From an uncultured Gammaproteobacteria bacterium (GTDB lineage: Bacteria; Patescibacteriota; Microgenomatia; UBA8517): 37,344 nucleotides of DNA. Shown piece after piece: positions 8,212 through 34,600 of this stretch. The position numbers were made by a program, and so were the translations under genes. Location of the stretch: assembly GCA_964396785.1 (NCBI GenBank), contig CAYNFU010000004.1, forward strand, positions 1 through 37,344, in the 5' to 3' direction. Every line of letters starts with the position of its first letter. The stretch's first letter is position 1. The notes under the pieces were generated by a model. The model ran no database searches and was not told where the DNA came from. It was given only the letters and a program-made list of their open reading frames with translations.

Positions 8212-8219
8212 GGTTAATA

Positions 8220-8248
8220 TTGCAAGAGGGAACTTAAATCTATATGAT
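8220..8248 (+). promoter_or_regulatory. Sigma70-type promoter for hddA, probably leaderless
   Basis: TTGCAA(8220-8225), 17 bp, TATGAT(8243-8248); ATG follows after 5 nt. Confidence 0.55.
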
Positions 8249-8253
8249 GAGGC

Positions 8254-9240
8254 ATGATTTTTGTCAGGGCACCTTTTCGCATTCCTCTTGGGGGGGGTGG
8301 AACAGATCTCCCGTCTTACTATTCAAAATTCGGCGGCGCTTTAATTTCGGCAGCTATCAACCGTTATATGTTTATAACAATAAATAGACTGATTGTGGAA
8401 AAACAGATAAGAGTAAAGTACGCTCAAACGGAAATTGTTAACCATGTTCGCGAAGTGAAACACGACTTGGTTAGAGAAGCCCTGCGACTGACCAATATCA
8501 CAGATTCTATCGAAATTAATTCAGTTGCCGACCTTCCCGCGGGCGTTGGAATGGGCTCCTCGGGAAGCTACCTGGTAGCCCTTTTAAAAGCCCTTCATAC
8601 GCTTAAAAACGAATATGTCTTAACAAAAGACCTCGCCGAAGAAGCTTGTAAAATTGAAATAGAGAAACTGGGCAGGCCCGTCGGAAAACAGGATCAGTAT
8701 ATTGCAGCTTTCGGCGGTATTACCAAGCTTAATATAAGAAAAAATGGGGGAGTTAGAGTGAAACGCTTAGCTCTAAAGCCGGCTTTTGTCAGAGATTTGG
8801 AAAATAGCCTTCTAATTTTTTATACAGGCATAAAGCGTGAGGAAAAACAAATACTAAAAAAGCAGAATAAGGCAACCCGCCACAACAATAAAAGAGTTAT
8901 AGAGAACTTGCATCTTATCAAGTCCATTGGCCTTAAGATTGAGAGGGCTTTAATCAGGAATGATATTGATGCTTTCGGCAGGCTAATGCACGAGCATTGG
9001 ATGGCCAAACGCAATCTGTCCTCAGGGGTAAGTTCTTCCCGAATCGACCATCTCTACCAATTGGGTATCAAAAACGGGGCTTTAGGTGGTAAAATTATGG
9101 GAGCCGGAGGAGGAGGTTTTCTTCTTTTCTGCTGCCCCGAGGGCAAGACACAAGTTAGAAAAGCCATAGAGAAAGAGGGCCTAACTGAGCTGTTTTTCCA
9201 TTTTGACATGGAAGGAACAAAAGTTATCGCCGATTTCTGA
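8254..9240 (+). CDS. hddA: D-glycero-alpha-D-manno-heptose-7-phosphate kinase (GHMP family)
   Basis: RAPFRIPLGGGGTD, PAGVGMGSSG, GKQDQY, GGKIMGAGGGG; lies next to gmhA and gmhB. Confidence 0.88.
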   Translation: MIFVRAPFRIPLGGGGTDLPSYYSKFGGALISAAINRYMFITINRLIVEKQIRVKYAQTEIVNHVREVKHDLVREALRLTNITDSIEINSVADLPAGVGMGSSGSYLVALLKALHTLKNEYVLTKDLAEEACKIEIEKLGRPVGKQDQYIAAFGGITKLNIRKNGGVRVKRLALKPAFVRDLENSLLIFYTGIKREEKQILKKQNKATRHNNKRVIENLHLIKSIGLKIERALIRNDIDAFGRLMHEHWMAKRNLSSGVSSSRIDHLYQLGIKNGALGGKIMGAGGGGFLLFCCPEGKTQVRKAIEKEGLTELFFHFDMEGTKVIADF

Positions 9241-15538: not shown

Positions 15539-15871
15539 GCCAGCTTTAGATTCAGCTCCGACATTTGCTGGGGCTTTCCCGAAAGTTGTTGGGAGCGAAT
15601 TATGCTAATTAAAAAAGATATGGAGTAACAGTTGGCTTAGTATTTTTCCCCACCCACTTTTTTCTGCTTGTCATAATCAATATGTATAGCTCTGATACAA
15701 AATATAACCTTTCGATGCAAACAAGATCAGGACTCGCTTATTATTAAAAAAAGGGTTTAATGTAAGCGAAAGTGGAAGGAATACCAGGCGACTTTGAAAC
15801 TACCGGAGTGTAGAAGAAGTATCATAATTTGGATATCGAAGATTAACATTTTTTGTGCATATACTATTTAT

Positions 15872-18070
15872 ATGCCCAGGAAAGTCCTTTTTGCTTTGTT
15901 CCTTGTATTGTTCTCGTTAATAACTATTCGTTATGCGCTAAACCCCGATAAAACCCAAGCTGCCATAAGTGCCTGCAGCGTTACCGTAGGCCCTAATTTT
16001 CAGAATGTTGGCTCCTCTGGTACTTTGTCATTTGGAATAACTAATAATGACGAGTCTAGTAATTCGATCCGTTGGATTAAAATAACGGCTCCATCCAGTA
16101 ATTTTGTAATTACAAATGCGACTGGGTTATATCAAAGCTCAGCTGAGATAAACTCTTCTGCGACTGAAGTAACAATTAAGCTTTCTGGTTTATCGCCAGC
16201 GGAATATGGTGAGTATTATCTTAGTATAACGACTGGGGACAACATAATGCCTGCCCAGTCGTTTGCAGTTCAAGTTTCCGACACAGACGCGGGGGACAAC
16301 CCGGTTAGTTGTTCTGGAGATACGGGGGTTTCAATACCTTCGCCGGGACAAGAAATTATTAATATTTCAAACTTGTTGGTTTCTTTTACCGATACGTCAG
16401 CTGTTATTAGTTGGAATACGGATGCAAATGCAACCAGCCAGGTAGAATATGGAACCACCAATCAATACGGCAGTACGAAAACGGATTCCAGCTTGGTTAC
16501 GACGCATTCTGTAAACTTAACCGGACTTTCCTCAAGTACCGTTTATCACTTTCGGGTTACAAGTGTAAATGCTGACAATGACACTGCCCAACTTACAGAC
16601 AACACTTTCACGACAGCTACGGCGGGGACAACCACCACATCAACCGTGACGGTAACTGCTACGACTACTAAGACTATCAGCGACACAACTTCGCCCGGAA
16701 TTTCAATAAGTACAATTTTTTCCGAGCCATACGAAACCGCTCCGGTTATTTCCGGAGTTGCAACAGATAATTCCGGGGTCTCACAAGTTGAGTATTCGAT
16801 TGACGGGGGGAAAAACTGGATTCCTGTTGATGACTTTGGGAAAACTGGTGCAAAGTCGACTACCTTTAGCTTTCTACCATCCATTATTGATGACGGCAAC
16901 TACGATATTAAAGTTAGGGCGACTGACTCTTCTGGAAATAAGACCGTTTCCAAGACTTATGCTTTGGTTATAGATAGACTTCAACCTAGAGTCGGGGGTG
17001 TACTTTTTTCTTTGGGCCCGATGGTTCTTTTACCAGATGTCCAAGGCAATATTTTTACCATCGAAGGACTGGATACTAAGGTTACTCTTTCAGCCGTAGG
17101 CGGACCGATAAAACTGGATATCTTATCAGGTAATCAAACCTTTTCTTTTGTCAGAAATATTGAGTCCGGACTTTGGAGTGGGGTGCTAAGTTTTGTCAAA
17201 CACGGCATCTTTAGCCTCGCTACTAAATCTGTGGACGGTGCCAATAATTCCACAGAAGGAACTTTAGGAACAGTTATTTCATTGGAAGCGGGGAGAGTAG
17301 TAAGCGGCGAAACCCCCTTAAAAGAAGCAAAAGTCTCCGTTTATGCCTTTGAGTCTGGACTGGGGGAGTTTTTGGCTTGGAATGCCGCCCCTTATGGCCA
17401 AGAAAGTCCCCAAGATGTGGGTAGCCAAGGTGAGTATAAACTGATTTTGCCTCCTGGAAAGTACTATCTTGAAGTTTCTGCCCCGGGCTACTCGAGAGTA
17501 CGAACCAGCATCTTTGAAATTAGCCGTCCTACCCCCATTACTCAGAACTTTAGCCTTAATAAAAGGATCGGGCTTCACCTTGGTAGAATATTTATCGGTC
17601 TTCCAGACTTTAAAAATAGGGTAGTTGATATTCAAAACGATCTCCCTGAGGCCGGGGAAAAAGTCTCGACAAAGGCTGGAGCCGCCTTGCCGGACTTCTT
17701 ATTTGAGTCGGAGGAGCAAGCAGTCTCCAACATTTCACTTCTAGGGAAACCTACCGTTCTTACTTTTATTTCTACTTGGGCGCCGGAGTCGTCAGATCAA
17801 TTATCCGCCCTAGAGGCCTTTGCAGAAGAATTTAAAGAAATAAATGTCTACGCCGTTGCCGAGCAGGAAGGAAAGGGTAAGGTTGAAACTTTCAAGAAGG
17901 TGGGCGGTTATGAAGTTGAAATCGTGGCCGATTCCGATGGAGTTCTGATTGAACCTCTTTCTCTGAGCTACTTTCCCAGCCACGTATTTGTAGACAGAAA
18001 AGGAGTAATTCAAAAGGTTGTGGTTGGCTTTTTATCTAAAGAAGAGATTGTCCAAAACCTGCTAAACTAA
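15872..18070 (+). CDS. Exported multidomain protein: FN3-like, Ig-like, carboxypeptidase-regulatory-like and C-terminal TlpA/thioredoxin-like domain lacking CxxC
   Basis: Signal/anchor MPRKVLFALFLVLFSLI; HSVNLTGLSSSTVYHFRVTS; VEYSIDGGKNW...KVRATDSSGN; LPPGKYYLEVSAPGY; GKPTVLTFISTWAPES...FPSHVFVDRKGVI. ATG 15872 is 6 nt after TATACT. Confidence 0.8.
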   Translation: MPRKVLFALFLVLFSLITIRYALNPDKTQAAISACSVTVGPNFQNVGSSGTLSFGITNNDESSNSIRWIKITAPSSNFVITNATGLYQSSAEINSSATEVTIKLSGLSPAEYGEYYLSITTGDNIMPAQSFAVQVSDTDAGDNPVSCSGDTGVSIPSPGQEIINISNLLVSFTDTSAVISWNTDANATSQVEYGTTNQYGSTKTDSSLVTTHSVNLTGLSSSTVYHFRVTSVNADNDTAQLTDNTFTTATAGTTTTSTVTVTATTTKTISDTTSPGISISTIFSEPYETAPVISGVATDNSGVSQVEYSIDGGKNWIPVDDFGKTGAKSTTFSFLPSIIDDGNYDIKVRATDSSGNKTVSKTYALVIDRLQPRVGGVLFSLGPMVLLPDVQGNIFTIEGLDTKVTLSAVGGPIKLDILSGNQTFSFVRNIESGLWSGVLSFVKHGIFSLATKSVDGANNSTEGTLGTVISLEAGRVVSGETPLKEAKVSVYAFESGLGEFLAWNAAPYGQESPQDVGSQGEYKLILPPGKYYLEVSAPGYSRVRTSIFEISRPTPITQNFSLNKRIGLHLGRIFIGLPDFKNRVVDIQNDLPEAGEKVSTKAGAALPDFLFESEEQAVSNISLLGKPTVLTFISTWAPESSDQLSALEAFAEEFKEINVYAVAEQEGKGKVETFKKVGGYEVEIVADSDGVLIEPLSLSYFPSHVFVDRKGVIQKVVVGFLSKEEIVQNLLN

Positions 18071-18074
18071 AATT

Positions 18075-19646
18075 ATGTGGAAGCCGTTTATTTTTGAAAA
18101 CCTACATTTTGCCATAAATACTTTTGGTGCCCTTTCCCTATTTTCTATTTTTTGGCTTTATTTAGACGTTTGGCTTCCCAAGAAAACCCTTAAGGAAGGC
18201 TTAAAGGTAGCAGGATTTCTACTGCTTTCCCTCTCTTTTTTACTGCAGGCGACCAGGCTTGAGGCAAGTATTATTGTTAACCCTCTAACCAGCGGGAAAC
18301 TGGTCCAGGTTATCCTACTTTTTACAAGAATAGCAGGTTACATATTGGTTGCGGCTGGTCTTGCTATTGAAAATATTGAGGTCCATCCTGAGGTAAAACC
18401 TAAAACTGGAGCAATATGGTCTTTGCCGGTTGCGTCCATGGCCCAGCCACTTCTTGCGGGAGCTATCGGGTGGCTTTACCTTAGAAAAGTTGCAGTTGGC
18501 CTTGAGCACCATCTCAAAAGGGTAGGTATTGGGTTTTTTGTGCTCGCCGTATATGAGCTTCTGGCTCTACGGGGCCTTTTTGTCGGAACCTCCAATATAG
18601 CAATTTATAAGACTACGGCCCCCTTCGGGGTTGTCTGGGGACTCGAACAGCTGGTTGAGCTTGCGGCTTTTGTAATCTTTTTCTCTTGGGCATTTTCCTA
18701 CCTTCTAAAAAGGATTAATACCCAGCTTTTTATTATTTTTACCTCCACCGTTCTTGCTATCTTTCTTCTTACGGCTGTTTCTTTCAGCTTCCTTCTTCTT
18801 AAAAACCTTCAGGACGAGACTCTTTCTAGACTTGATACCGACGCTTCCGTCTTGTCTTTTGCACTTGAAGCCAAGAAGTCTGAGGCAAAATCTATTGCTC
18901 TTGGCCTTTCCCAGAACCCTGCAGTTATTGAGGCAATTATTGGGGAAGAGAAGGGAACTCTTTCGGATTTGGCTCAAAAGACCCTTGTTGATGAAAAAGC
19001 GGGAAGCGTAATTGTCTTAGACGGCAGTGGAAAGGTTTTGGCCAGAGGTGAGGAGAGGGAGAGAGTAGGAGATTCGCTCTCTGACGACTCATTGGTAAAA
19101 AGGGTTCTTTTGGGTAAAGCTGAAACCTCGGTAATTACCAAAGACGGGGTTTTGGCCCCAACCGTTATCGTCAGAGCAGCTGCACCGATTGTCTCGGGCG
19201 AGGAAGCCATTGGAGTGGCTCTTGTAGGAATACCCATAGACAATGCGTTTATGGACGGGGTTAAAAAAGGAACTGGGTTGGAGGCTGCGGTTTTTGGGAA
19301 AGACAGCCTTTCGGCGACCACAATTACTGATTTTACGGGTAAAACTCGCCCGATTGGAATAAAAGAGACAAATAAAGAAGTATTAGAAACGGTTCTAGGA
19401 AAAGGAGAGAAAAAAACTGCACTGGTTAGTCTGCTTAATGGGCAGTATTTTGCTTCGTACCATCCCTTAAAAGACGTTGACGGAAGCGTTGTTGGTATGA
19501 TATTTACGGGCAAACCCGCTTATTCGGTCTTGGCAACGGCAGGACGCTCAATTGAGATAACCTTTTTGGTTTCTGCCGTTTTAATTATCTTTTCGATAGT
19601 CCCTACCTATTTAATCTCAAAATACATAGCCCAACAGCTTAAATAA
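18075..19646 (+). CDS. Polytopic membrane protein with Cache-like sensor domain and no cytoplasmic output
   Basis: About 7 N-terminal TMs; VIVLDGSGKVLARG...AAAPI...YFASYHPLKDVDGSVVGMIFTG; final TM then stop. Confidence 0.78.
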   Translation: MWKPFIFENLHFAINTFGALSLFSIFWLYLDVWLPKKTLKEGLKVAGFLLLSLSFLLQATRLEASIIVNPLTSGKLVQVILLFTRIAGYILVAAGLAIENIEVHPEVKPKTGAIWSLPVASMAQPLLAGAIGWLYLRKVAVGLEHHLKRVGIGFFVLAVYELLALRGLFVGTSNIAIYKTTAPFGVVWGLEQLVELAAFVIFFSWAFSYLLKRINTQLFIIFTSTVLAIFLLTAVSFSFLLLKNLQDETLSRLDTDASVLSFALEAKKSEAKSIALGLSQNPAVIEAIIGEEKGTLSDLAQKTLVDEKAGSVIVLDGSGKVLARGEERERVGDSLSDDSLVKRVLLGKAETSVITKDGVLAPTVIVRAAAPIVSGEEAIGVALVGIPIDNAFMDGVKKGTGLEAAVFGKDSLSATTITDFTGKTRPIGIKETNKEVLETVLGKGEKKTALVSLLNGQYFASYHPLKDVDGSVVGMIFTGKPAYSVLATAGRSIEITFLVSAVLIIFSIVPTYLISKYIAQQLK

Positions 19647-20497
19647 TGAAACCCACTGCCCCAAAAGAGCTGAATGTCTTTCTTAAGTTGTTAGCGGTTC
19701 TTGCTCTGGGAGGAGTCTTCTTTCTTCTCTTCTTCTCGTTTTTTGCCCGGGTGGGCAGTGGAATCTTTCTTTTTTCCGGAATTATTCCGGTCTCGGCCGG
19801 CTACTTTTTTGGCAGTTGGGGAGGCTTAGTAGGGGGGTTAGTTATCTTTCCGCTAAACTTTCTTTTGTCTAGGGCAGTTACGGGAACAAGTGTTGAAGAA
19901 TTCTTATGGCCAAATGTTGCGCCCAACCTAGGTCTTATTCTTATCGGAGTGTTTGTGGGAAGACTTAGGGAAACACAAAGAAAACTGTTTGAAGCAAAGC
20001 TAATCCAGGAGAGGCTTCGAGAGTCCGAAGCCAAATTTTCTCTTTTTATGAACAATGCCCCGATTGTCGGTTGGGTAAAAGATCCGGAAACTTGGAAATA
20101 TCTTTATATAAATAAGACCTTTCAGACCACTTTCAAAATTAAAATGGAGGAGATTACCCAGAAAAGAGATTCTGACCTTTGGCCAAAAGAGGTAGCGGAG
20201 ACTTTAAGGAAAAACGACTTTGAGGTCTACACAAAAGGGAAGGTATTCAGGATTTATGAAGACGTTCCAACGCCTGACGGTGTTATGCACCACTGGCTCG
20301 TTTTTAAGTTTCCGGTTGAGTCCGAAGGTAAGCGCCTGGTCGGGGGAACGGCGATAGACATTACAGCCTTAAAAAAATCCCAGGACGAGTTGGCGGAAAG
20401 AACGGTTGAATTAGAGAGAATGAACGAGCTTATGGTGGGAAGAGAATCTAAAATGGCCGAGTTAAAAGAGCAGATAAAAAAGCTTAAAGCTAAGTAA
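19646..20497 (+). CDS. Membrane PAS-domain protein ending in a coiled coil; no kinase domain
   Basis: 3-4 TMs; SEAKFSLFMNNAP...YINK...WLVFKFPV...GGTAIDIT (PAS/PAC); ends LERMNELMVGRESKMAELKEQIKKLKAK. Confidence 0.82.
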   Translation: MKPTAPKELNVFLKLLAVLALGGVFFLLFFSFFARVGSGIFLFSGIIPVSAGYFFGSWGGLVGGLVIFPLNFLLSRAVTGTSVEEFLWPNVAPNLGLILIGVFVGRLRETQRKLFEAKLIQERLRESEAKFSLFMNNAPIVGWVKDPETWKYLYINKTFQTTFKIKMEEITQKRDSDLWPKEVAETLRKNDFEVYTKGKVFRIYEDVPTPDGVMHHWLVFKFPVESEGKRLVGGTAIDITALKKSQDELAERTVELERMNELMVGRESKMAELKEQIKKLKAK

Positions 20498-20499
20498 AA

Positions 20500-23187
20500 A
20501 TGCGTGTAACCGCTTCCATTCGATTCAAAACTCTTCGTGTAATGCTTCTTTCTATGATTGTGCTTCTGGTTGGCTTTTCTTATTACGCCCTAACTTATTT
20601 GTCTGAGGAGTTTCATAGTATAGAAGACAGAAGAATCGGTGATAACCTCGAAAGAATTCTGGATACCCAGAAATTTAATCTTGATAACCTAAGTATTAAG
20701 CTAACTGGTTGGGCCGCTTGGGACGATACTTACGAGTTTACAGAAGATAAAAATCAGGAATATATAGATTCCAATCTCACGCCGTTTGCCGTACAAAATC
20801 TAAGGGTCAACTTCATGGTTTTTATGAATAATAAAAGCGAGATTGTTACTAGTTTGGGATACGACTACAACAATTCTCGAGAGGTTGACCTTCCGGAGGG
20901 CCTCCGTGCCCTTATCTACCCCGGAAGCGAAATTATTACTCATAGTGAAGTTAGTGGAGAAAAAAAAGGCATACTTAGTCTCGAAGAGGGTCCTTTAATG
21001 TTTGTCTCTCGCCCGATAATTACCTCCGACGGGGAAGGGCCGATAAAAGGGACACTAATTTTTGCGAGGTTTTTGGATCAGCGGGAATTAGAACTTCTTT
21101 CTGGTGTTGTTCATTTTCCTCTCCAGCTTATTAAAATAGACGACAAGCTAGGGGACGAGTATAAAGAAGCTTTCCAGGTATTAAATAGAGGGGAGAAATA
21201 TCATGTCCATAATGCAGACAGAAAAACCTCTCACGGCTACGCTTTAGTCAAAGACTACTTCGGCAAACCCGCTTTTCTTTTAAGGATGAGTTATCCCAGA
21301 GATATAACCCAACAGGGAGTCAGAAGTATTAATATTTTTATAGCCTCTTTCGTTATAGCCTCTATCGGTTATCTGGTACTAATTATATTTTTCGTGAACC
21401 GCTTTCTTATTAAGCGGGTAGAGGTTTTGTCCCGCGAGGTAGTCAAGATAGGAGAAAGCGGCTCGATGAAACTAAGAATTAACGTCGACCCTAGTCGGGA
21501 CGAAATAGCTTCTTTGGGTACAAGCATTAATAACATGCTTGAATTTCTGCAGATTGCCCAGAGGGAAGTTTCCGAGAAGAAAAAGGAGCTGGAAGGAAAA
21601 GTGGGACAGATTCAAAAACAGAACGAGTCTCTTACAGAGACCAAAAAAGCCATGCTCAACCTTCTCGAGGATGAAAAGGGGCTTGAGCAAGCCCTCAAAT
21701 CCGAGCGTGACAGAATAGGCCTTATCATCTCCTCAATGGGAGAGGGACTTTTGGTTGTTGATAACGAAAAAAGGATAATAATGCTAAATCCTGTTGCCGA
21801 GAATCTTTTAGAAACCAAAGGACAGGTGGTTATCGGTAAAAGCTGGTCGGAAGTAGTAAAAACCCTTAAGGAAGATAAAGAAGTTCCCGTTATGGAGCGT
21901 TCTTTCACCCAAGTGGTAGCCAAAAGAAAGCCGATTATTACCAATCTTGAGGACGACCATTACTATCTAACCAAATCCGGCAGGAAATTCCCGATTGTTT
22001 CAATTACAGCCCCCCTTATTTCTGGCGGTAAGTTAGTCGGGGCAGTCAAGGTATTTAGGGATGCGACAGTCGATAAAGATGCTAAAGAAAATATCGAAAA
22101 AGAGGTGACAGAGCGTACCAAAGAACTCGCTGAGGAAAAGGCCAGACTACTTGCTTCAATTGAGAGTCTTCCGAGAGGATTTATCTTAACCGACCCCGGA
22201 GGAAATGTTATTTTAACCAATAAACTATTAGTTGATATTTTCGGAAAGATTCCGAGAGAAGGCTGGACTCTTGCAAGTCTTCAGACCGTTTTAGGTAAAA
22301 GTTTTGACCTGATGGGGAACTTTAAAAAAGTTATCTCACAAGTGGAAAAATCCGTCTATGTAGGAGCCTTATCGTGGGGTACCAAATTTCTTGAACTATT
22401 CATAGTACCGGTTACTCTAGCTAATGGAAGTGTGGTTGGGACAATAATACTTATAGGAGACGTTACTGAAGCCAAGGTTTTAGAGCGTTCCAAAGACGAG
22501 TTCTTCTCAATTGCCAGCCATGAGCTTCGAACTCCATTAACTGCCATCAGGGGCAATACCGCTCTAATTAAGGATTACTTTGTCAAGAAAGTCAAAGACC
22601 CTGAATTTGTAAATATTGTAGATGATATTCACACATCAAGCATTAGACTAATTGGAATTGTTAATGATTTCTTAAATCTCTCCCGCCTGGAGCAGGGGAG
22701 AATGGAGTTTAAGAAAGAAAAAGTAGATGTTGCGGCCGCGATAAAACAAGTTTTTGAGGAGCTCGGAGAGTCGGCGAGTGCGAAGAGTCTTAAACTTGTA
22801 TATATTGAGTCAAAGACGAAAGTGCCGCTAGCCTTGGCAGATAACGAGAAGGTCAAAGAAGTTTTAGTCAACATTCTTGGAAACGCAATCAATTACACCG
22901 AAAAAGGAGACGTGACAGTAAGTCTCACTGCCGAAGGGGGTCAACTTAAAGTAAAAGTGGCGGATACAGGGAGGGGAATTCTCGTTGCCAATCAAAACCT
23001 TCTTTTCAGGAAATTCCAACAGGCAGGCTCAAGTCTCTATACCAGGGATACGACCAAGGGAACGGGGCTCGGGCTTTACATTAGTAAGCTTATGGTCGAG
23101 GGAATGGAGGGAACAATTGGCCTCTTGGTGAGTAAAGTTGGGGAGGGTTCAACTTTTTGTTTCACACTTCCTATTGCAAAGAGTTAG
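20500..23187 (+). CDS. Sensor histidine kinase (CHASE4-HAMP-coiled coil-PAS-PAS-HisKA-HATPase)
   Basis: WAAWDDTYEF and SRPIITSDGEGPIKGTLIFARFLD (CHASE4); DEIASLGTSINNML (HAMP); ASHELRTPL, NILGNAINYT, DTGRGI, GTGLGL. Confidence 0.93.
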   Translation: MRVTASIRFKTLRVMLLSMIVLLVGFSYYALTYLSEEFHSIEDRRIGDNLERILDTQKFNLDNLSIKLTGWAAWDDTYEFTEDKNQEYIDSNLTPFAVQNLRVNFMVFMNNKSEIVTSLGYDYNNSREVDLPEGLRALIYPGSEIITHSEVSGEKKGILSLEEGPLMFVSRPIITSDGEGPIKGTLIFARFLDQRELELLSGVVHFPLQLIKIDDKLGDEYKEAFQVLNRGEKYHVHNADRKTSHGYALVKDYFGKPAFLLRMSYPRDITQQGVRSINIFIASFVIASIGYLVLIIFFVNRFLIKRVEVLSREVVKIGESGSMKLRINVDPSRDEIASLGTSINNMLEFLQIAQREVSEKKKELEGKVGQIQKQNESLTETKKAMLNLLEDEKGLEQALKSERDRIGLIISSMGEGLLVVDNEKRIIMLNPVAENLLETKGQVVIGKSWSEVVKTLKEDKEVPVMERSFTQVVAKRKPIITNLEDDHYYLTKSGRKFPIVSITAPLISGGKLVGAVKVFRDATVDKDAKENIEKEVTERTKELAEEKARLLASIESLPRGFILTDPGGNVILTNKLLVDIFGKIPREGWTLASLQTVLGKSFDLMGNFKKVISQVEKSVYVGALSWGTKFLELFIVPVTLANGSVVGTIILIGDVTEAKVLERSKDEFFSIASHELRTPLTAIRGNTALIKDYFVKKVKDPEFVNIVDDIHTSSIRLIGIVNDFLNLSRLEQGRMEFKKEKVDVAAAIKQVFEELGESASAKSLKLVYIESKTKVPLALADNEKVKEVLVNILGNAINYTEKGDVTVSLTAEGGQLKVKVADTGRGILVANQNLLFRKFQQAGSSLYTRDTTKGTGLGLYISKLMVEGMEGTIGLLVSKVGEGSTFCFTLPIAKS

Positions 23188-23210: not shown

Positions 23211-23579
23211 ATGTCGAAGATTCTCATTATTGAAGACGATCCATACGTTCTCAAGTTTTACGCTAGACTTTTTGCCCTGGGTAAATACGAGGTCGAAATG
23301 GCGGGAAGCGGCAAGGAGGGACTGGAAAAAGCAAGGGCGTCAAAACCCAGTTTGATTCTTCTTGATATAATGATGCCCGAAATGGATGGATTTGTAGTCC
23401 TTAAAGAGCTCAAGGCCGACCCTGAAACAAAAGACTCTGAAGTCATTATGCTTACAAATCTAAGTGATACGGAATCATATAAAAAGGCAATTGAGTTGGG
23501 GGCAAATGGCTATTTGATCAAAGTAAATAACCCGCCCGAAAAACTCATTGAGGAGATAGAAAAACACATTCATGGCTAA
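23211..23579 (+). CDS. Single-domain response regulator (receiver only)
   Basis: ILIIEDD, LILLDIMMPEMDG, MLTN, YLIK; 122 aa. Confidence 0.92.
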   Translation: MSKILIIEDDPYVLKFYARLFALGKYEVEMAGSGKEGLEKARASKPSLILLDIMMPEMDGFVVLKELKADPETKDSEVIMLTNLSDTESYKKAIELGANGYLIKVNNPPEKLIEEIEKHIHG

Positions 23580-23988
23580 GATATTAATTATTGAAGACGA
23601 CCCCCTGATGAGCAGGATGTATCAAAAGATATTCTCCTTTGAGGGCTACGAGGTAGACGTTGCCGAAGACGGGGAGGACGGCCTGGCCAAGGTAAGGAGT
23701 TGGGGCCCCAACCTCATACTTTTGGATATTATGATGCCCAAAATGAACGGTATGGAGGTTCTGGAGAGGCTTAAAAGTGACCCTACCACAAAAAAACTTC
23801 CTGTTGTGATTTTGACCAACCTGGCTGGTCAAAAAGACGCAGAAACTGCAATGGGCAAAGGAGCAGTAAAATATATAGTAAAGTCCGAGTACGAGCCCAA
23901 AGAAGTCGCCAATATGGTCAAAGAGATTCTGGCCGGCTATACCAGAGAAGAGGTACCCCAAGTTTCGGAAGATAAACAACAAGGTTAA
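23572..23988 (+). CDS. Single-domain response regulator (receiver only)
   Basis: ILIIEDD, LILLDIMMPKMNG, ILTN, YIVK; short acidic tail. Confidence 0.92.
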   Translation: MAKILIIEDDPLMSRMYQKIFSFEGYEVDVAEDGEDGLAKVRSWGPNLILLDIMMPKMNGMEVLERLKSDPTTKKLPVVILTNLAGQKDAETAMGKGAVKYIVKSEYEPKEVANMVKEILAGYTREEVPQVSEDKQQG

Positions 23989-24260: not shown

Positions 24261-24281
24261 TAGGGGAGTATTATTTAATTG

Positions 24282-25097
24282 ATGCTAGGGTTTAATAAAA
24301 AGACCACGGCAAGGCGCAGACTAATTTTTGTATTTTTTATTCTGGGAGCTTCCTTAGCCACATTATTCTTGGGTAATATAAGCTGGCCTAAAGATATTTC
24401 TTTCCAAAATCTCTGGGGTGTGGCATCTGTATGTCTTGCAGCTACAGCTGGGGTTTTAGCCCTTATAAAGCTTATGACCCGCAAGAAAAATAAGTACGCA
24501 TTTATCGCAGGAGGTTTTTTTGGGGTTGCCGTAATTGAGCTTTATAGCCTATTTAGCCCCCTTGGCCCCTCAGCGCTTCTTTGGCTCCTATCTAAAATAC
24601 TTCTTTCAGGGTACTTACTTCTATCACTTAAGGCTTGGCGTGAGGGAGAAGGGGAACAGAAGGGCTTAAAGCCCAGAGTTTATGTCTCCGCTGCAGTTTC
24701 GGCCGTACTTATTATAATTTTGGTGAGCCTGCTTCCCTCTTACGACCCATATAATCCAATGGGTCCTTTTGGTCGACCGATTGAACTGACCGCCGTCTTT
24801 TTATTCGCTGCGACGGCAATCGGATACTATTCCAAAGGCTATTGGGAGTTTAAATACTTTGAATTCTGGTTTCTGCTTTCACTTGTTTCCGCTATTTTTT
24901 CCCAAACCTATATGGCTCTCTCGCAATCATATTTTGATGGAATATACTGGGGGGCCATAATCTTAAAGAATTTGGGTTACTTATTTGCTCTTATTGGGCT
25001 TTTAGCAAGTTCATGGGCGGCATTCCGAGAAGTTGAGGCTGAAAAGAAGTATTTAGCAGGACACACTAAGGGAGAAGCCTACCTTAAAGAGCAATAA
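24282..25097 (+). CDS. Stand-alone polytopic membrane sensor (MASE3-like) with no catalytic domain
   Basis: About 8 TMs; YAFIAGGFFGVAVIE, GRPIEL, WFLLSLV...SQSYFDGIYWGAIILKNLGY resemble MASE3 segments of kinases (from memory); GGGGAG upstream. Confidence 0.62.
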   Translation: MLGFNKKTTARRRLIFVFFILGASLATLFLGNISWPKDISFQNLWGVASVCLAATAGVLALIKLMTRKKNKYAFIAGGFFGVAVIELYSLFSPLGPSALLWLLSKILLSGYLLLSLKAWREGEGEQKGLKPRVYVSAAVSAVLIIILVSLLPSYDPYNPMGPFGRPIELTAVFLFAATAIGYYSKGYWEFKYFEFWFLLSLVSAIFSQTYMALSQSYFDGIYWGAIILKNLGYLFALIGLLASSWAAFREVEAEKKYLAGHTKGEAYLKEQ

Positions 25098-27247: not shown

Positions 27248-30200
27248 CTAAGGCGGACCAGTGGCAGATCCGAAAAAGACCGCACCCTCGTTATATGCCT
27301 TTTTAACCTGAGCCTGACTTAAGGGGTAACTGTAAATACGGACATTGTCAATTTGACCATCGAAAGGATTGCCCTCATCAGACTCCGAACCTATTTGAAA
27401 AGAAACAGCCGGGTCTGAAGGTAAAGATCCTACGGTACTTCCGGCAGTCACAATTCCATCGACATAGACGAAGATCTGTCCGATATCATTATCCCAAACG
27501 CCCACGATATGGTGCCAACCTGCCGCCGTAATTGTAATACCCGAGCTATTGACAATGTCTCCGACCGATCCGTTTCCCACATTGAAAACAGATAAATCTC
27601 CTACATTAATATACAGAGCCCAACCGTCAATGAGTGTGGATGAAATATCATCTTTTTTCGAAGCAATTACGTCAAGTGTATTAAATGTTGCCCGATTTAC
27701 CCAGGCTTCGACTGAAAAACCAGAATCAACTATGTTGAATTGACTTTGGTCACCCATATCTACATAGTCCGCGTTGGCTGCCGTAGCGTCGCCGTCAAAA
27801 TCCAAAGAAGCATTTCTTTTGCCGGTTGTTCCGTTATTCCACATCTCCGTTGTCGTTCCTGAGCTACAGGAGCCTACAGAAGTATTACTTCCTCCGGAGC
27901 CTGCCGAAATTGTTCCGTTTAAACCGAAAGCCTCACCACTACTGTTAATAGCAGAATTATAGGCAGTTGTGCCCGAACACTCATCGAGCTTATACCAAGC
28001 CCAAGGTGCCCCACGGTTATATGTATAAACTGTTTGGGCGTCGGTAAGTGTATAGTTATAAAATCGAACATCGTCGATTGTTCCATCCCAGCCGTCGCTA
28101 GTTCCGTCTCTGTCCATTCCGATATATAGGGCATTAGCATTTGTTAAGGTAGCCAACGCAGCTCCTCCCGACGCAACCACTCTTCCATCAACGAAAAGTT
28201 TTAAACCTTCCGATGTATCGCGTTTTCCAACAACGTGGTGCCAGAGGCTATCGTCATAGTCAATCCCGCTAGTACAGGCAAAGGCATCCGGAGTCCAAGT
28301 TGTATCATCATCGGTTGCAAAACAAAAGTCGCCGCTGTCGTCCATATAAAGTTTGTAACCCCCGTTTGTGGTATCTGCCTTAGTCATAATATAGTCGTTG
28401 CTTGTCGAGATGGCGCCATTATGTTTAACCCAGGCCATTATGGTAAATCCCTGATCGTCGGCAACATCGAATTCGGAATCGTCCGCCCAGGAAAGATATT
28501 CGTTGGAGCCATCAAGAGTCAAAACGGAGCTACTTTTATTAAGATACATGGATTTGGACCAATCTGTTTCCTCGATGTTGTTCATGGTCATATTATTTTC
28601 ACCTCCCGAGGAATCACTTACAGTTGTTGTACCCGTTCCTTCGCTTAGTCTCCACCAGCCGTTAGGGGGATTTCCTCCAAGACCACCGTCGTCATAGCCG
28701 GTGATATCCCCGAGTACGGCGCTGGATCCGTAATTCATATCAACCTTAACCTCAGAAGAGAAGAGAGCAGAACGGAAGATTTTTACCTCGTCAAGGTCGC
28801 CATTAAAGTCGTCCGTATCGTTGGTTGCGTTTCTATCGCCAATTGTCAAAGAGTCAGTGTTTGACAGGTTTCCGGTTGCGGTAAGTGTAGCGTCAGCATC
28901 AACTAATTTCGCGTCTATATAAAGCTCAAGACGCCCAGTTGTGGTATTTCGTATGCAAACCGCATGATGCCATGTTTGGTCGTAGTAGTCTGTATTTGCG
29001 GCTGTATCTCCGGCAGAATCTTCGGGGAAAGTAGTTGCATCATCGTCAATTCCACAGACGATCTCTGCATTTGTGGCAGTTGCCCATATGGCATAACCCG
29101 CTGATGCGGCCTCTTTACTTACAAGGTACTCGTCGTTTGAGGGATTTGTCAGGGAATCCGATTTAAACCACAGACTTAACGAGAAATCTTCGGCTGTATT
29201 AAAGTCGAAATCTGGATCATCTGTCTTTGAAAGCCAATTGGCCCCCGTTCCATTCCAGGCACCATTAAATTTACCAGACGGGGTCCAAGATGAGCTGTTT
29301 AAAGTCAAATCATTGTTATTGGTTGTGGTATCTTGGGCAGTAGTACCGTATTCATCGTCCATTTTCCAGCGGGCAACATATGAACCAACGGGGGAGCCGG
29401 GGGAGGGGTGGCCGGCATTCATATCTGTGATTAATTGAGTCGAGTTACGGGCATAGGCGTAGACTTTAACATCGTCGACCCTAGAATTTACATTAAAAGG
29501 AGAGCTTGCACCTCCCATAATTGAAAAGAGTTGAGTGTTTGTCATGGAATCTACACTTGAAATTGTTCCGGCTTCGGAAGTCTTATCTTTAACCCCATTT
29601 ATATATACTGCCGTATTTGTAGTGGAGTCACGATCAAAAACCGCGGCAATGTGATACCAAGTATTGGCAGTGAGCCTCGTAAAAGCGGTACAGGTCTCGT
29701 ATTTGTCCGTACCATCCGCGACATATAGGCAAATGTTGCCATCGTTTGGATTGGACCATGCCAGCAAAGCATATCCGGCTCCGGTATCAAGTGCGTTGGC
29801 CTTTTTACGAATTAGTAATAAATCGTTGTCAGTATCTTCCCGATAAAACCAACCTTCAATTGTCAGGTTCTCTCCCTTTATGTCAGTAATAGTGTTTTGG
29901 GTAGTAGTAATCGCGTCTGATGATTGTCCAACTCTTACTCCACTTCCAAATTTTGCAGTTGTCCAGCTAGCTCCGGAGGCTAAAGTAAGCGTATCAATTC
30001 CTGCGCCGCCGAATTCTAAAGAGCCGCTGGTATCATTTGCCGAAGTTCCCGTATTTTCGTCTAGTTGGTAATAGGCAATTGGAGCAGGTCCCCAGGAATA
30101 GAGTTTTTCGATTTCGGCTGAGGACATTGCTCGGTTGTAGATGCGAACGTCGTCAATTTTACCGGTGTAGTCGTATAGCCCGTACGCGGCACTTCCACCA

Positions 30201-31582
30201 TTACCCAGAGAGACATCATCGTTATTAGCCGTAGTTGCTGTAGTAGTATCAGTGACTGATCCGGCTTGAATTCCGTCAACGTATATGAATACCTTGTCTC
30301 CGGTAACATCTCGAACTCCCACGATGTGGTGCCAAACTCCATCGTTAACATTTGGTGCGTAACAGGCAGTCGGAGTATTTGTGCCGTCGGATAATTTGAA
30401 ACATGCGTCCGAGCCGTTATTTAAATTGAGGAAGTAAGGATAAGCACCGGAGCTACTGTCATTTTTCATAGCAATTGCCGCCTCAAATCCCACAAAAGTA
30501 GTGGTATTTATCCATGCACTTATCGAATACGAATCGGTTGTTGCACCCAAATCTACGGGTGCAACTTCAGTAAATCGAACGACATCATCTGTACCGTCAA
30601 AAGTAAGGCTAGGTCCGAATTTACCTGTAGTCCAGGTAGTTTGACCCGTAAATGTTTGGCTGGTAATTCCGTTTCCGCTTGAATCACCTGTAGTCGTTCC
30701 GGAATTTTCATCCAGTCTCCAATATCCGACAAGACCATTAGAAAGATAAGATGAATCCGAAATTCCAAAAGAGGCAGAGGTTCCACCGGACGGGGAATTC
30801 TTGGCAAAATCTCCTTTAATACCGCTGGCCGAGCGTGCCAAGCGGTATACTTTGAGTTCGTCCAAAAAACCCACCCAGCCGTTACTTGAGCCATCACCGT
30901 CCATGCCCAAATAAAAAGTGTCCGAATTATCAACATTGCCCGTAGACGTAAGGCTAGTTGTTCCGATTAAATTTGCGTCGATGTAAAGAGAGATACTTGA
31001 AGAGCCGCTTTTAACAGCTTCTACTTGATGCCATTGGTTGTCGTCGTAATTTGCGGCGGTTGATGTAACGGAGTCCTCGGGAAAAGAAGTTTGGTCATCG
31101 TCTATTCCAAAAGTAATATCGCCGTCGGACTCCATTAGGATTTTGTAGCCGCCATCCGTGCCAGTGGCGGAATTATATTTGGCTACCAGCACTTGTTGGC
31201 CGGAAGTCATCGGGGTGTGCCTAAACCATAAAGTAATTGTGAAGCTCTGGCTGCCGGTGAAATCAAGGTCTACGTCGTCGCCGAAAGATACCAAATCTCC
31301 AGTGCCGTCAAAATAGAGACATTTTCCGTCGAAACATAGATCGTCAGTTTTCCAGACGGCATTTGTAATAGTTCCTGTTACATTACCCTGCTGATCGCCA
31401 ACCGATTCACCGTAACCCTCATCGAGTTTTACCAGGGTATCTGCTAGGACCATGCTGGGATCGCGAAGTGTCAGGTAGGCGATAGGTAGTATGACTATAA
31501 TTACTATAAGAGAGAAAACAAACAATATTTTCCTAAGTTTCCTGGTTCTTTTGAACAAAGAACAAACACCCTTAGGAGTCAT
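27248..31582 (-). CDS. Membrane-anchored/secreted protein with six LamG (ConA-like) domains
   Basis: N-terminal basic region plus TM; six repeats of (W/Y)xLDE.G...WHH/WYH...YIDG/YVDG...G.(I/L)D(D/E)V(R/K).Y. Start taken as MTPKG (31582). Confidence 0.88.
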   Translation of the reverse strand: MTPKGVCSLFKRTRKLRKILFVFSLIVIIVILPIAYLTLRDPSMVLADTLVKLDEGYGESVGDQQGNVTGTITNAVWKTDDLCFDGKCLYFDGTGDLVSFGDDVDLDFTGSQSFTITLWFRHTPMTSGQQVLVAKYNSATGTDGGYKILMESDGDITFGIDDDQTSFPEDSVTSTAANYDDNQWHQVEAVKSGSSSISLYIDANLIGTTSLTSTGNVDNSDTFYLGMDGDGSSNGWVGFLDELKVYRLARSASGIKGDFAKNSPSGGTSASFGISDSSYLSNGLVGYWRLDENSGTTTGDSSGNGITSQTFTGQTTWTTGKFGPSLTFDGTDDVVRFTEVAPVDLGATTDSYSISAWINTTTFVGFEAAIAMKNDSSSGAYPYFLNLNNGSDACFKLSDGTNTPTACYAPNVNDGVWHHIVGVRDVTGDKVFIYVDGIQAGSVTDTTTATTANNDDVSLGNGGSAAYGLYDYTGKIDDVRIYNRAMSSAEIEKLYSWGPAPIAYYQLDENTGTSANDTSGSLEFGGAGIDTLTLASGASWTTAKFGSGVRVGQSSDAITTTQNTITDIKGENLTIEGWFYREDTDNDLLLIRKKANALDTGAGYALLAWSNPNDGNICLYVADGTDKYETCTAFTRLTANTWYHIAAVFDRDSTTNTAVYINGVKDKTSEAGTISSVDSMTNTQLFSIMGGASSPFNVNSRVDDVKVYAYARNSTQLITDMNAGHPSPGSPVGSYVARWKMDDEYGTTAQDTTTNNNDLTLNSSSWTPSGKFNGAWNGTGANWLSKTDDPDFDFNTAEDFSLSLWFKSDSLTNPSNDEYLVSKEAASAGYAIWATATNAEIVCGIDDDATTFPEDSAGDTAANTDYYDQTWHHAVCIRNTTTGRLELYIDAKLVDADATLTATGNLSNTDSLTIGDRNATNDTDDFNGDLDEVKIFRSALFSSEVKVDMNYGSSAVLGDITGYDDGGLGGNPPNGWWRLSEGTGTTTVSDSSGGENNMTMNNIEETDWSKSMYLNKSSSVLTLDGSNEYLSWADDSEFDVADDQGFTIMAWVKHNGAISTSNDYIMTKADTTNGGYKLYMDDSGDFCFATDDDTTWTPDAFACTSGIDYDDSLWHHVVGKRDTSEGLKLFVDGRVVASGGAALATLTNANALYIGMDRDGTSDGWDGTIDDVRFYNYTLTDAQTVYTYNRGAPWAWYKLDECSGTTAYNSAINSSGEAFGLNGTISAGSGGSNTSVGSCSSGTTTEMWNNGTTGKRNASLDFDGDATAANADYVDMGDQSQFNIVDSGFSVEAWVNRATFNTLDVIASKKDDISSTLIDGWALYINVGDLSVFNVGNGSVGDIVNSSGITITAAGWHHIVGVWDNDIGQIFVYVDGIVTAGSTVGSLPSDPAVSFQIGSESDEGNPFDGQIDNVRIYSYPLSQAQVKKAYNEGAVFFGSATGPP

Positions 31583-31593
31583 ATATTTAATAT

Positions 31594-31621
31594 TCATAAA
31601 TCTTAAATCGTAAATCATAAT
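31594..31621. repeat. Four imperfect tandem heptamers TCATAAA-TCTTAAA-TCGTAAA-TCATAAT
   Basis: Read directly between the giant fibre gene and the LamG gene. Confidence 0.8.
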
Positions 31622-31624
31622 TTA

Positions 31625-34600
31625 TTATTGAGAACTTGCCTGTTTTGTATCAACTATCCACCAGTTAAATTCGACGTCGGATGTTGATTCTTGATCAAAA
31701 CCAACAATAAACATTGGTTCACAAGAACCCGTTGCTTCTTCACACCCATCCTGCGACTTTACATAAAGAACATTATTGCCGGTCGAAGTCGTGGGGGTCA
31801 CATAAATTAACGCATTAACTTTGGTATTTATATTTTTAATAGTTACTTCGGCAAGACCGGCAGGAATTAGACCCTTCCCTGCAGTTGTTAAGGACTCAAT
31901 TACATAATTACCGTTTAAATCATATGTTCCTTCGGCAGAATCAGTTGTAATTGCGACATGCTTTGTTGCTAGATCAGAGAAAGTGGCGGTTTCACTTGAT
32001 AAGGTGGAGGATTCGATTTTGCCAGCCACTGTGAGGTCACCCTCAATTATCATATTTCCGGAAGTATCGATTCTCACCTTGCCAGCCATAAATTCTATTG
32101 GAGCCAGGGCGAGTGCCTGTAGGCGAAGAGGGGAGGAGAGACTATCAATAGTATTTACGATTTCGCCACTACTATTTTGGGAAGATTGAATAAATAGAGC
32201 GTTTCCGACAGATATAGCAGATGTAACTGATAGGGAATTGACTGCGGCTTGCTCCGTTACGTAAAGGTTTGTTGTTGACACCTCGTTCAGATTCGCAGAG
32301 CCGCTTGCAGTGTCTATTTGCCAATCGCCGCTTGATGTAAGTAGCGATTGGTCGACCTCAACCTCTGCAAGCAACGCCTCTATCTCTTCTCTTGTAATTC
32401 CTGAAATATTAGCCGATGTCAGATCTGCAAAGTTGCCTGCTCTTGAAACTATCTCATCGGCGTAGATTTTACCTGCCCTTAGTTCTCCAGAAACTGTGGC
32501 ATCACCGGCGAATTCGGCATTACCCTGTGCGTCGATCGAGGCTACTTGCTTTCCCTCTTCTCCTTTAATTGAGAGTTTTCCGTAGGAGGTAGTTGAGCCG
32601 GGTTGCGTATTTTCAAGGTTTATGACCAAATTACTCTTACTAACCGGCGAGATTATCTGGGTTTTAACAAGCGGCGAAACAAGACCCGAGCTTATAAGAA
32701 GGTTGTCGACTCTTGCCGTAGTGGCCTCAAGGACTACGGTTGCAAGTTTCTTGCTTTCGATTACCCCGGCTTTAATATTGGCGGCAACAAGATTTGCCAA
32801 AGCATCAATTTTTGTTATTAGCTCACCGGCATTTAGGACTTGGTAGGTGCCCTCGGGAGTTTCGGCTATTTCAAGATCGGGGAGGTTTAGATTACCCTCG
32901 CCGTTTAGAGCAATTTCAGAGCCGGTATCGTACCAGGAAAGGTTTACAAAAACTGTAATAGCGGTTTTTGGCTGACTAGGATCCCAAGACTCGAGGGCTT
33001 TCCCAATGACCGGACCGCTATATACAGCCTTCATCGCCTTACCAGGCTCAGCACTTGAGGTTAAGTAGTCTCCGACGGCAATTGCTTCTGAGCTATGAGA
33101 GATTAGAACCGGAACTCGTCCGGCAAGGGCTATTGGGAAAGCACCGCCAGAATTCTCTCCTAGCGTGATCCCTGGATTTGTTGAGACGACCCCGATGGTT
33201 TGGACTTGATAGGCGTTGCTACTTCTTAAGACCTCATCGCCGTTATTATTTGAAATTTGGACAACTTCACCGGGGGCAAGGCTATCCGGGCTTTCAAAAA
33301 ACTCTGCCAAGTCAGCCCCCCCAGTTTGGTCGCCGTCCAAGTCCAAAAACTCAATCATATTCCAGGTGGTGCCGTCATATATAAACGAAATCATATCTCC
33401 CGCTGTTCCTCCTGTAATGTTTGTACTTCCGCAGTTTAGGGTAGAGCAGTCAAAGTCGGTACCCGTGCCGTCTATTTCGATAAAAATAATCTGACCCGCG
33501 CTTCCATTGGTGAAGTTGGTTATTGTTCCATTGGCGTTTCCGATAAAGTGAGAGCCCCCAGCAACAGACGGGGTAGTCCCCGAAGGAAGAGTTTGCTGGG
33601 TATCCAGAGCAAATGCACCTTGAACAACCATTTGTCCGGTTGCGGGCAGGTCAAAGACGATATCTCCGGAATTGTAGGTTTTAAGGGTCAAATTATTCGA
33701 CTCAGCGGGTTCTCCAGCCTGAATGGTCAGAGGGCCATAACTATCTATTAAGGAGGCGGTTTGATTGGTAAAGACGAGGTCATAGGCAAGAGATACGTCG
33801 CCCGATGCCGTAAAGTTATGAGGGAGGTTTGAGTTAATTTGATTTTCGGATACGTTAAATAGGGAGGTTGAGCCGTCAACGATATTTAGGATATATCCGG
33901 AGGATAGGGTACCGTTTGTACCTATTCCTACCTGTAAAATATCTCCAGAGGTTGAGGTAGAAGATGACCCCGGATCCCATTCTATAAGGCCGATATTGCC
34001 GGTAAAGGTGGTACTGGCCAGAGTCGATTCTATATGCAGCAAGTTGCCGCCTGTAAGGGAGCTTGAATTAAGATACATGCCTGTTCCCGTAGTCAAAGCA
34101 TTGTCCGTAAATACCCAGGCCGATGAGGAGGTAGATGTTGATGCAACCGAAGAGGTAAATGTTTGGGAGCCGGTTCCGGAAGTAAGATTAAGAGCCGTAG
34201 CACCCGTTGCATTTCCGATGTTTATGGTTTTGGCGATTGCATTTCCGATTGAAATTGCACCCGTTCCTGAGTCTATTTCTACCGATGAAGTTGAGGTTTC
34301 ACTTCCTATGACTACTGTTTTTGCTGCCCCTCCAGTTCCTACATTTACGGTTTCAGCCGAAGCATCGTCTCCAAGGGATAAAGTACCGGTTGTCCCAGAG
34401 TTTATAGATAGGGCGGTTGCTGCCGGAGTATCTATATTTCCTCCCACAACTGTCAAATCTCCCGTTAAAACGGCATTGCCACTCGTAGTTAGGTAAAGAA
34501 GTTCGCTAAAGGTAGCTGCGGTATCCCCAGTACCGGGAGCGGCTCCTTGGAAGCTAAGCGTATCATTGCCGACATCATGCCAGATCTCATAAGCCGATTC

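Follow-up and report, generated by a model that had tools for sequence, protein, structure and literature searches.

Output-less PAS sensors ending in a conserved helical motif are co-inherited with histidine kinases that carry a second motif in their stalk helix: a candidate docking pair

The DNA analysed here is a stretch of 37,344 nucleotides (hereafter the window), contig C4 (CAYNFU010000004.1) of an 842-kb genome in 73 contigs from an uncultured bacterium of the Patescibacteriota lineage (assembly GCA_964396785.1). It encodes, side by side, a PAS sensor without an output domain and a sensor histidine kinase. The sensor ends in a long helix that carries a conserved motif, motif A, while the kinase carries another one, motif B, in the stalk helix leading into its first PAS domain. 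The two motifs are inherited together and with a recurrent gene order. A-ended sensors and B-bearing kinases are very probably coupled functionally. We further infer direct docking of the A helix on the B segment (probability roughly 0.55), together with the stoichiometry of the contact and the direction of the signal. The preliminary description of this sequence, which had proposed that a basic helix (A) and an acidic one (B) join the two proteins in a hetero-helical bundle, is partly supported by our results: the two motifs do occur together and side by side, whereas the bundle and the pairing of charges keep the status of a proposal. Its placement of motif A at about 20410-20494 and of motif B at about 21620-21680 is confirmed by the translations of the open reading frames (ORFs). 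The features on which the argument rests are the following.

19646-20497, + strand: gene of the output-less sensor, 283 amino acids (ORF list; Pfam PAS_4, PF08448, at residues 151-243, E 6.5e-11)
20363-20491, + strand: C-terminal helix of the sensor, residues 240-282, carrying motif A (AlphaFold2 on alignment A5)
20432-20467, + strand: motif A core, MVGRESKMAELK (M263-K274; ORF translation and conserved columns)
20500-23187, + strand: gene of the sensor histidine kinase, 895 amino acids, starting 2 nt past the sensor stop (ORF list, Pfam)
21502-21735, + strand: stalk helix of the kinase, unbroken from residue 335 to residue 412, comprising HAMP AS2, the stalk and the PAS N-cap (AlphaFold2 on alignment A6)
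21649-21672, + strand: motif B core, AMLNLLED (A384-D391; alignments A4 and A6, also matched by the flank-free DNA pattern)

The sensor is made of a hydrophobic N-terminal third forming a membrane region, a single PAS domain and a C-terminal helix with which the protein ends. Assignment of the PAS domain relies on the PF08448 match and on the PAS-type order of helices and strands in the AlphaFold2 model. Pfam gives no match after the PAS domain, and neither HisKA nor HATPase_c anywhere in the protein. In the model of the sensor fragment, the PAS fold is followed by a single unbroken helix of 43 residues (fragment residues 123-165), with a pLDDT of 95.5 overall and of 96-98 over the helix blocks. 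The C-terminal sequence is LERMNELMVGRESKMAELKEQIKKLKAK, directly followed by the stop codon, and its LERMNEL segment begins at base 20411. The sensor had been regarded as an orphan. This is inexact, as the PAS protein is encoded in a tightly packed operon together with the kinase, and its ATG shares 1 nt with the stop codon of the upstream dCache_3 gene.

Motif A defines a large family. A profile (A1) built from both A tails of the window genome retrieved 4743 protein clusters (50% identity) at E ≤0.001 among 1.84 billion representatives. We examined 154 proteins, namely the best 150 of the 4743 profile matches and four from an earlier search. A loose motif A expression matched 133 of the 154, and in all 133 the last A motif starts 18-70 residues before the C-terminus. 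Among the 107 full-length members of at least 200 amino acids, R266, E267 and K274 (window numbering) are invariant, and N260, G265, M270, L273 and L280 are nearly so. The tail exists in a long form, ELERFNxxMVGRELRMIELKxEINxLxxxLGQPPRY, and in a short form, that of the window sensor, which finishes in a few lysines. In the same 107 proteins, Pfam identifies PAS in 94, CHASE, HAMP and dCache in 8 each and REC in 6; GAF, MASE1, CHASE4 and SBP are also represented. No output family (kinase, cyclase, phosphodiesterase or DNA-binding) is found among the 25 Pfam families listed for these proteins, and 13 more families, each occurring in at most one of the proteins, lie outside the 25. At the DNA level, a stop codon occurs within 60 residues past the motif in 119 of 125 distinct genomic A sites, among the matches listed. 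Overall, motif A is a large C-terminal module of sensors that have no known output domain.

Neither Pfam nor NCBIfam contains a model for the A tail. Applied to the window sensor, NCBIfam returns the sensory_box PAS model and, below threshold, a single weak match, neither of which covers motif A; a protein atlas likewise produced leads below threshold only. Profile searches of the PDB with the motifs gave generic coiled coils only (E ≥0.007) and no solved structure containing the A tail. A word-index protein search with the A tail against longer proteins yielded 29 candidates, none of them scoring, and is uninformative.

The motif A expression has two matches in the 842-kb genome. The first is the window sensor. 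The second is a cytosolic PAS protein of 199 amino acids, encoded on the minus strand of contig C2 (54935-55690, corresponding to 7936-8535 of locus L001), that ends in MVGRELRIAELKERLKKLGG. Its neighbours, named by eye from their translations, are genes resembling those of a primase and a sigma factor, together with small hypothetical ORFs. A separate observation concerns five A proteins (loci L013, L024, L047, L125 and L126) with tails of 93-105 amino acids. In these long-tailed proteins, the roughly 70 residues past motif A share a common pattern, W..KFQE.V.LEE ... H..F..L, and may form a small extra domain.

The kinase is organized in the order CHASE4, transmembrane (TM) segment, HAMP, motif B stalk helix, PAS, PAS, HisKA and HATPase_c. 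The Pfam matches span residues 60-210 for CHASE4, 298-348 for HAMP, 409-523 for PAS, 665-733 for HisKA (PF00512) and 781-893 for HATPase_c (PF02518); HisKA followed by HATPase_c makes it a class I sensor histidine kinase. Residues 374-393 (bases 21619-21678) read QNESLTETKKAMLNLLEDEK. Within motif B, A384, N387 and D391 are invariant in alignments A4 and A6, and E390 is nearly so. The AlphaFold2 model of the kinase fragment shows HAMP AS1, a connector and then one helix of 78 residues (fragment residues 40-117), with AMLNLLED mid-way along it; the pLDDT is 94.2 overall and 93-97 over the helix. This segment had been described as an extra helix between HAMP and the first PAS domain. Its position is indeed the one given by Pfam. 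However, since the 78-residue helix is unbroken, motif B is part of the stalk that runs from HAMP AS2 to the PAS N-cap and does not form a separate helix.

Motif B is always located in the helix leading into the next module, usually 15-20 residues ahead of a PAS domain and, in loci L053 and L055, immediately before the H-box. The modules ahead of it vary from kinase to kinase: dCache-HAMP, CHASE4-HAMP, a bare TM segment, REC, GAF, or none at all when B is N-terminal. The B core remains constant across these architectures. In ORFs of at least 100 amino acids of the window genome, a broad B expression, A..N[VIL][LMFA][ED]D, has a single match in 333,070 residues, and this match is the window kinase. 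The B segment is not covered by any NCBIfam model. A word-index protein search with the B region found only three near-identical orthologues and is uninformative. A second match to the bare-B DNA pattern, AVLNFFED, occurs in the window genome at 4612-4635 (+ strand) of contig C6. It fails the protein expression, sits in no matching ORF of at least 100 amino acids and is probably due to chance.

Motifs A and B were searched, with profiles A2 and A4 respectively, in 301 genomes taken evenly from the phylum of the window, one of which (G154, flagged as unpublished) is counted solely as lacking both motifs. A was found in 38 genomes, B in 35 and both in 32, whereas about four two-motif genomes would be expected for independent motifs (38 x 35 / 301). 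A alone was detected in six genomes, in three of them with E above 1e-4. B alone was detected in three, one of these matches being weak and another located 24 bases from a contig start. Because 257 of the 301 genomes contain HisKA, kinases as such do not explain the overlap. Several genomes of this sample have two or three A genes for one B. Thus, the co-occurrence claimed at the genome level holds strongly, and an independent distribution of the motifs, named beforehand as the outcome that would contradict the pairing, is excluded for the genomes searched.

The pattern extends beyond the phylum. In a sample of 151 genomes from the gammaproteobacterial class to which a Methylococcaceae locus belongs, full-length A is present in four genomes and B in three; all three B genomes are among the four with A, and in one of them B follows A on the same strand at a distance of 2.7 kb. 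A further 19 A matches of this sample cover only the PAS-end and leader of the profile and were left out. Exactly one B per genome, located beside A, is found in a Methylococcaceae (3.6 Mb), a Nitrospiraceae (3.2 Mb) and an Altiarchaeales (0.9 Mb) genome. The pairing recurs in many families and in three distant lineages. Both motifs had been described as recurring in signalling proteins of the Candidate Phyla Radiation type. This is right, and the range is wider, reaching Gammaproteobacteria, Nitrospiraceae, NC10, Omnitrophota and an Altiarchaeales archaeon; judged by their record titles, the A loci come from all of these as well as from Patescibacteria and Acidobacteriota.

Gene order is strongly biased. 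In 27 of the 32 two-motif genomes of the phylum, A precedes B on a shared contig and strand at a distance of 0.2-2.5 kb, and the remaining five are fragmented assemblies or weak matches. Gene order was also followed in a set of A-core loci collected with a back-translated DNA pattern, one genome per species. This set holds at least 126 loci, 80 of them with 6-kb flanks, and 125 distinct A sites; all counts drawn from it below are among the matches listed. Downstream DNA of 900 nt or more is available for 74 A genes. In 15 of them the open frame directly after the gene matches a narrow B expression, and in 44 the broad expression is matched within 4 kb downstream on the same strand. In addition, all 11 directly downstream HisKA kinases that the narrow expression missed carry a variant B, such as AKIAARNVLEDL, AALLNVLDDQ or AVLNLADDV. 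Counted as distinct sites, 43 B motifs are downstream of A, one is upstream and none is on the opposite strand. The sole upstream case is L075, in which the kinase precedes the A gene in one operon. Hence, the adjacency put forward in the preliminary description also holds strongly. Where genes intervene between A and B, they encode more sensor parts: NMT1 or SBP binding proteins, dCache, FIST, PAS and HAMP. In five loci (L016, L036, L038, L053 and L072), a gene for a periplasmic solute-binding protein (NMT1/THI5-like, SBP_bac_8 or ABC_sub_bind) stands between the A gene and the B kinase, which hints at a three-part sensor.

Natural rearrangements of the two motifs were also identified. G101 encodes a fusion in one frame of 497 amino acids, in which a TM segment and a coiled coil are followed by an A-like LTVERELRLAELKK, a 22-residue linker containing proline, B (AMLNILED), PAS and HisKA. 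In G136, the split falls exactly between A and B: the stop codon of the A protein overlaps the start of the kinase, and B is found about 20 residues in. Proteins P0028 and P0039 carry A, a PocR domain and then a B-like AALSVAEDA or AALTLAEDA, whereas P0044 and P0101 have B at the start of a PAS array and A at the end. Such fusions, exact splits and domain insertions agree with a plug-and-socket module. The G136 kinase (locus L129, contig C1, from about base 2690) starts with B as ALLNILED and has a degenerate repeat, AALLNMLKD, some 35 residues later, before its PAS domain. An expectation that A and B usually occur in tandem within long multi-PAS kinases did not hold: only two of the 107 proteins of at least 200 amino acids, taken from the best 150 of the 4743 matches, carry a consensus B.

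Heptad positions were counted over 126 A sites and 46 B sites. The arginine of the GRE triplet falls at the core position d, and the conserved N, E and K of motif A all fall at e. By this count, invariant polar residues line one face of each helix, N, R, E and K in A and N, E and D in B. Both motifs also have hydrophobic residues outside positions a and d (V+1, L+5 and I+8 in A; an L at b and an L at e in B). From the sequences, this second hydrophobic seam would be expected to pack into a coil of more than two strands. The leaders of the two motifs are weakly similar (hhalign probability 43.8%). Prediction of a 2:2 complex (kinase residues 296-530 with alignment A6; sensor residues 118-283 with A5) gave scores of 0.09 and 0.04 against a mark of 0.32, without controls, and speaks neither for nor against binding. 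The idea that A is a degenerate DHp helix was rejected, since hhalign of A2 against the HisKA alignment A9 gave a probability of 3.5%, with only the DIT of the PAS-end aligned.

The closest known element is the signalling helix, or S-helix, described, in the parts of the source used here, as a coiled coil of 40-45 residues between two domains of one chain, with an ERT signature at heptad positions c, d and e and its R at the core d (Anantharaman, Balaji and Aravind 2006, PMC1592074). The likeness to that partial description lies in the long coiled-coil helix joined to sensor domains, in the polar R at d and in the GRE of motif A at c, d and e. Moreover, the window sensor has an ERT (residues 252-254) eight residues before MVGRE (M263), and B, like an S-helix, stands between two signalling domains, HAMP and PAS. 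ERT-like triplets at the modal offset are nevertheless in the minority, at 30 of the 126 A sites and 9 of the 46 B sites, and the window kinase has GQIQKQ there. The helix of motif A (residues 240-282) ends its protein rather than joining two domains, and the MVGRE..M.ELK and A..N.LED cores are distinct from the ERT signature. Finally, a paired inheritance of two genes, as for A and B, is absent from the S-helix description in the parts of PMC1592074 used here. The pair also resembles HAMP (PF00672), with its two helices and flexible connector acting as a dimeric transmitter before PAS or DHp, an outline that the G101 fusion reproduces. However, PF00672 covers only residues 298-348 of the kinase, reaching neither B (384-391) nor the sensor C-terminus; helices A and B exceed those of HAMP in length, and each half normally sits on a protein of its own.

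On these grounds, A and B are best read as the halves of one signalling junction, which is usually divided between two polypeptides. The plug would be the long motif A helix ending a sensor that has no output domain. The socket would be motif B in the stalk helix leading into a PAS domain, or directly into DHp, of a dedicated kinase that is usually encoded just downstream. Most likely, dimeric A helices would bind the B segment of the dimeric stalk in a helical bundle of roughly 2:2 composition, and the input received by the accessory sensor would change the conformation of the stalk, and hence the output of the kinase. In the window, the TM-PAS protein (19646-20497) would act as the accessory sensor of the CHASE4-HAMP-PAS-PAS kinase (20500-23187), which would in turn phosphorylate both downstream receiver proteins. 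The cytosolic A-ended PAS protein of contig C2 would use the same single B socket.

Several points weigh against direct docking or against the strength of the counts behind it. Profile A4 derives from loci linked to A, flanks included, so that it partly detects one kinase lineage. For that reason, the B search was repeated over the 301 phylum genomes with a DNA pattern of the bare core. This flank-free pattern gave 28 matches in 27 genomes, with none for a reversed-pattern control, and A is present in 23 of these 27 genomes versus 15 of the remaining 274; it lifts the bias of A4 for the exact core pattern only. Related genomes are not independent of each other, and the counts therefore overstate the number of independent events and are not probabilities. 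The A core is fixed by the search pattern in the set of A sites, and most A-B pairs are close kin. G387, a gammaproteobacterial genome with full-length A, has no B match. No B is found within 4 kb of 30 of the 74 A genes, and the second A gene of the window genome, on contig C2, has no kinase neighbour. Given such A genes without a nearby B or kinase, docking would have to act in trans and in a many-to-one manner. Lastly, with their shared weak leader, A and B could be paralogous coiled-coil segments, each pairing only with itself.

An alternative that we regard as unlikely takes A and B for what is left on either side of a covalent linker that was present in an ancestor and was interrupted through gene fission or through inserted sensor domains, with operon inheritance keeping the two together. 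The helices would then be homodimeric coiled coils only, and coupling would pass through other surfaces, for instance PAS-PAS or membrane contacts. The fused and exactly split forms in G101 and G136 agree with such a history, as do the similar coiled-coil leaders and the S-helix-like ERT triplets found at a minority of both A and B sites. In multi-PAS kinases, moreover, PAS domains are normally linked by such coiled-coil helices. On the other hand, the cores of A (12 residues) and B (8 residues) hardly vary between Patescibacteria, Gammaproteobacteria and an archaeon, even though the domains around them are exchanged, and plain synteny does not account for this. Moreover, A genes unlinked to the kinase are kept in genomes that have exactly one B, and a domain after A is almost never seen, which would be surprising if A were just a leftover linker.

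With its invariant polar stripe (N, R, E, K), A could fit any specific partner, and the operons also encode receivers and more sensor proteins. A could therefore bind a third party, such as the DHp or catalytic domain, a receiver or another operon product, with B serving as an internal switch motif for that input. We consider this quite improbable: A is unlike a DHp helix, B is the only feature found to track A across differing kinase architectures, and B directly follows A in G101 and G136. As for ordinary, unrelated coiled coils that are alike and adjacent by chance, both segments are indeed charged amphipathic helices of a common type, and the PDB searches retrieved nothing more specific than generic coiled coils. 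This explanation is excluded by the counts, namely one match of the broad B expression in 333,070 residues of the window genome, a position downstream of A on its own strand for 43 of the 44 distinct B sites, 32 two-motif genomes where about four are expected, and no match for the reversed control of the DNA pattern. Direct docking of A on B remains the reading that we prefer.

In its organization, the proposed contact recalls the docking domains of polyketide and non-ribosomal peptide synthases, in which a C-terminal helical element recognises the subunit encoded next and ensures ordered assembly without a covalent link. The analogy is functional only, as sequences, enzymes and purpose are unrelated. 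A likeness to the accessory or auxiliary proteins of kinases also exists, in that a separate polypeptide would modulate the kinase; to our knowledge, those cases are individual systems without a shared motif pair spanning a phylum. The term 'split kinases', in the portion of the source used here, refers to a division of catalytic functions and not to the separation of a sensor from a stalk (PMC3591291). Literature searches by motif string retrieved only unrelated papers, and among the entries retrieved by topic no earlier description of such an A/B pair appeared.

More tentatively, and with odds that we place slightly below even, A and B could constitute a general docking code across phyla, with which bacteria and archaea put together multi-sensor kinases out of separate chains. 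The single B socket of one kinase might then accept A-ended sensors in any number, and proteins that bear B as well as A, such as P0044 and P0101, might allow sensors to be chained. Output-less sensor proteins are common and mostly unexplained. Motif A offers a recognisable C-terminal tag for one large class of them, and motif B is its predicted counterpart in a specific kinase, the gene of which is usually adjacent. The general code, if real, would assign a role to thousands of PAS, CHASE, Cache and GAF proteins without an output domain, and it would be to signalling what docking domains are to assembly-line synthases. Should the helices dock, additional inputs could be connected to a two-component kinase by a simple and portable rule. 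Such a rule would also help in reading signalling networks from genomes, chiefly the tiny genomes of Patescibacteria with one socket and one or few plugs, and could be used for building modular synthetic sensors.

In the window, the sensor and kinase genes belong to an operon of six genes on the + strand, with overlaps or gaps of a few bases between them. Its other members are listed below.

15794-18070, + strand: gene of a multi-domain secreted protein, first gene of the operon
18075-19646, + strand: gene of a membrane dCache_3 sensor with several TM segments, without output domain and without motif A (Pfam dCache_3 at residues 251-477)
23211-23579 and 23572-23988, + strand: two overlapping genes of single-domain response regulators (Pfam Response_reg, E 4e-25 and 6e-26)

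The two receivers are likely the phosphoryl acceptors of the kinase. The dCache_3 protein, whose translation ends directly after a hydrophobic segment, is a member of the split-sensor operon and stands outside the A/B pair. The product of the first gene, of 758 amino acids, has an N-terminal hydrophobic segment followed by fn3, Big_13 and CarboxypepD_reg-like repeats according to Pfam. Its C-terminus is an AhpC/TSA-Redoxin domain of the thioredoxin fold, an odd companion in a sensor-kinase operon. Beyond the receivers, 24279-25097 (+ strand) encodes a membrane protein that consists of MASE3 only, without output domain and without motif A. Further downstream, two very long open frames occupy the minus strand, at 27248-31618 (1456 amino acids) and at 31625-37342 (at least 1905 amino acids, continuing past the window edge).

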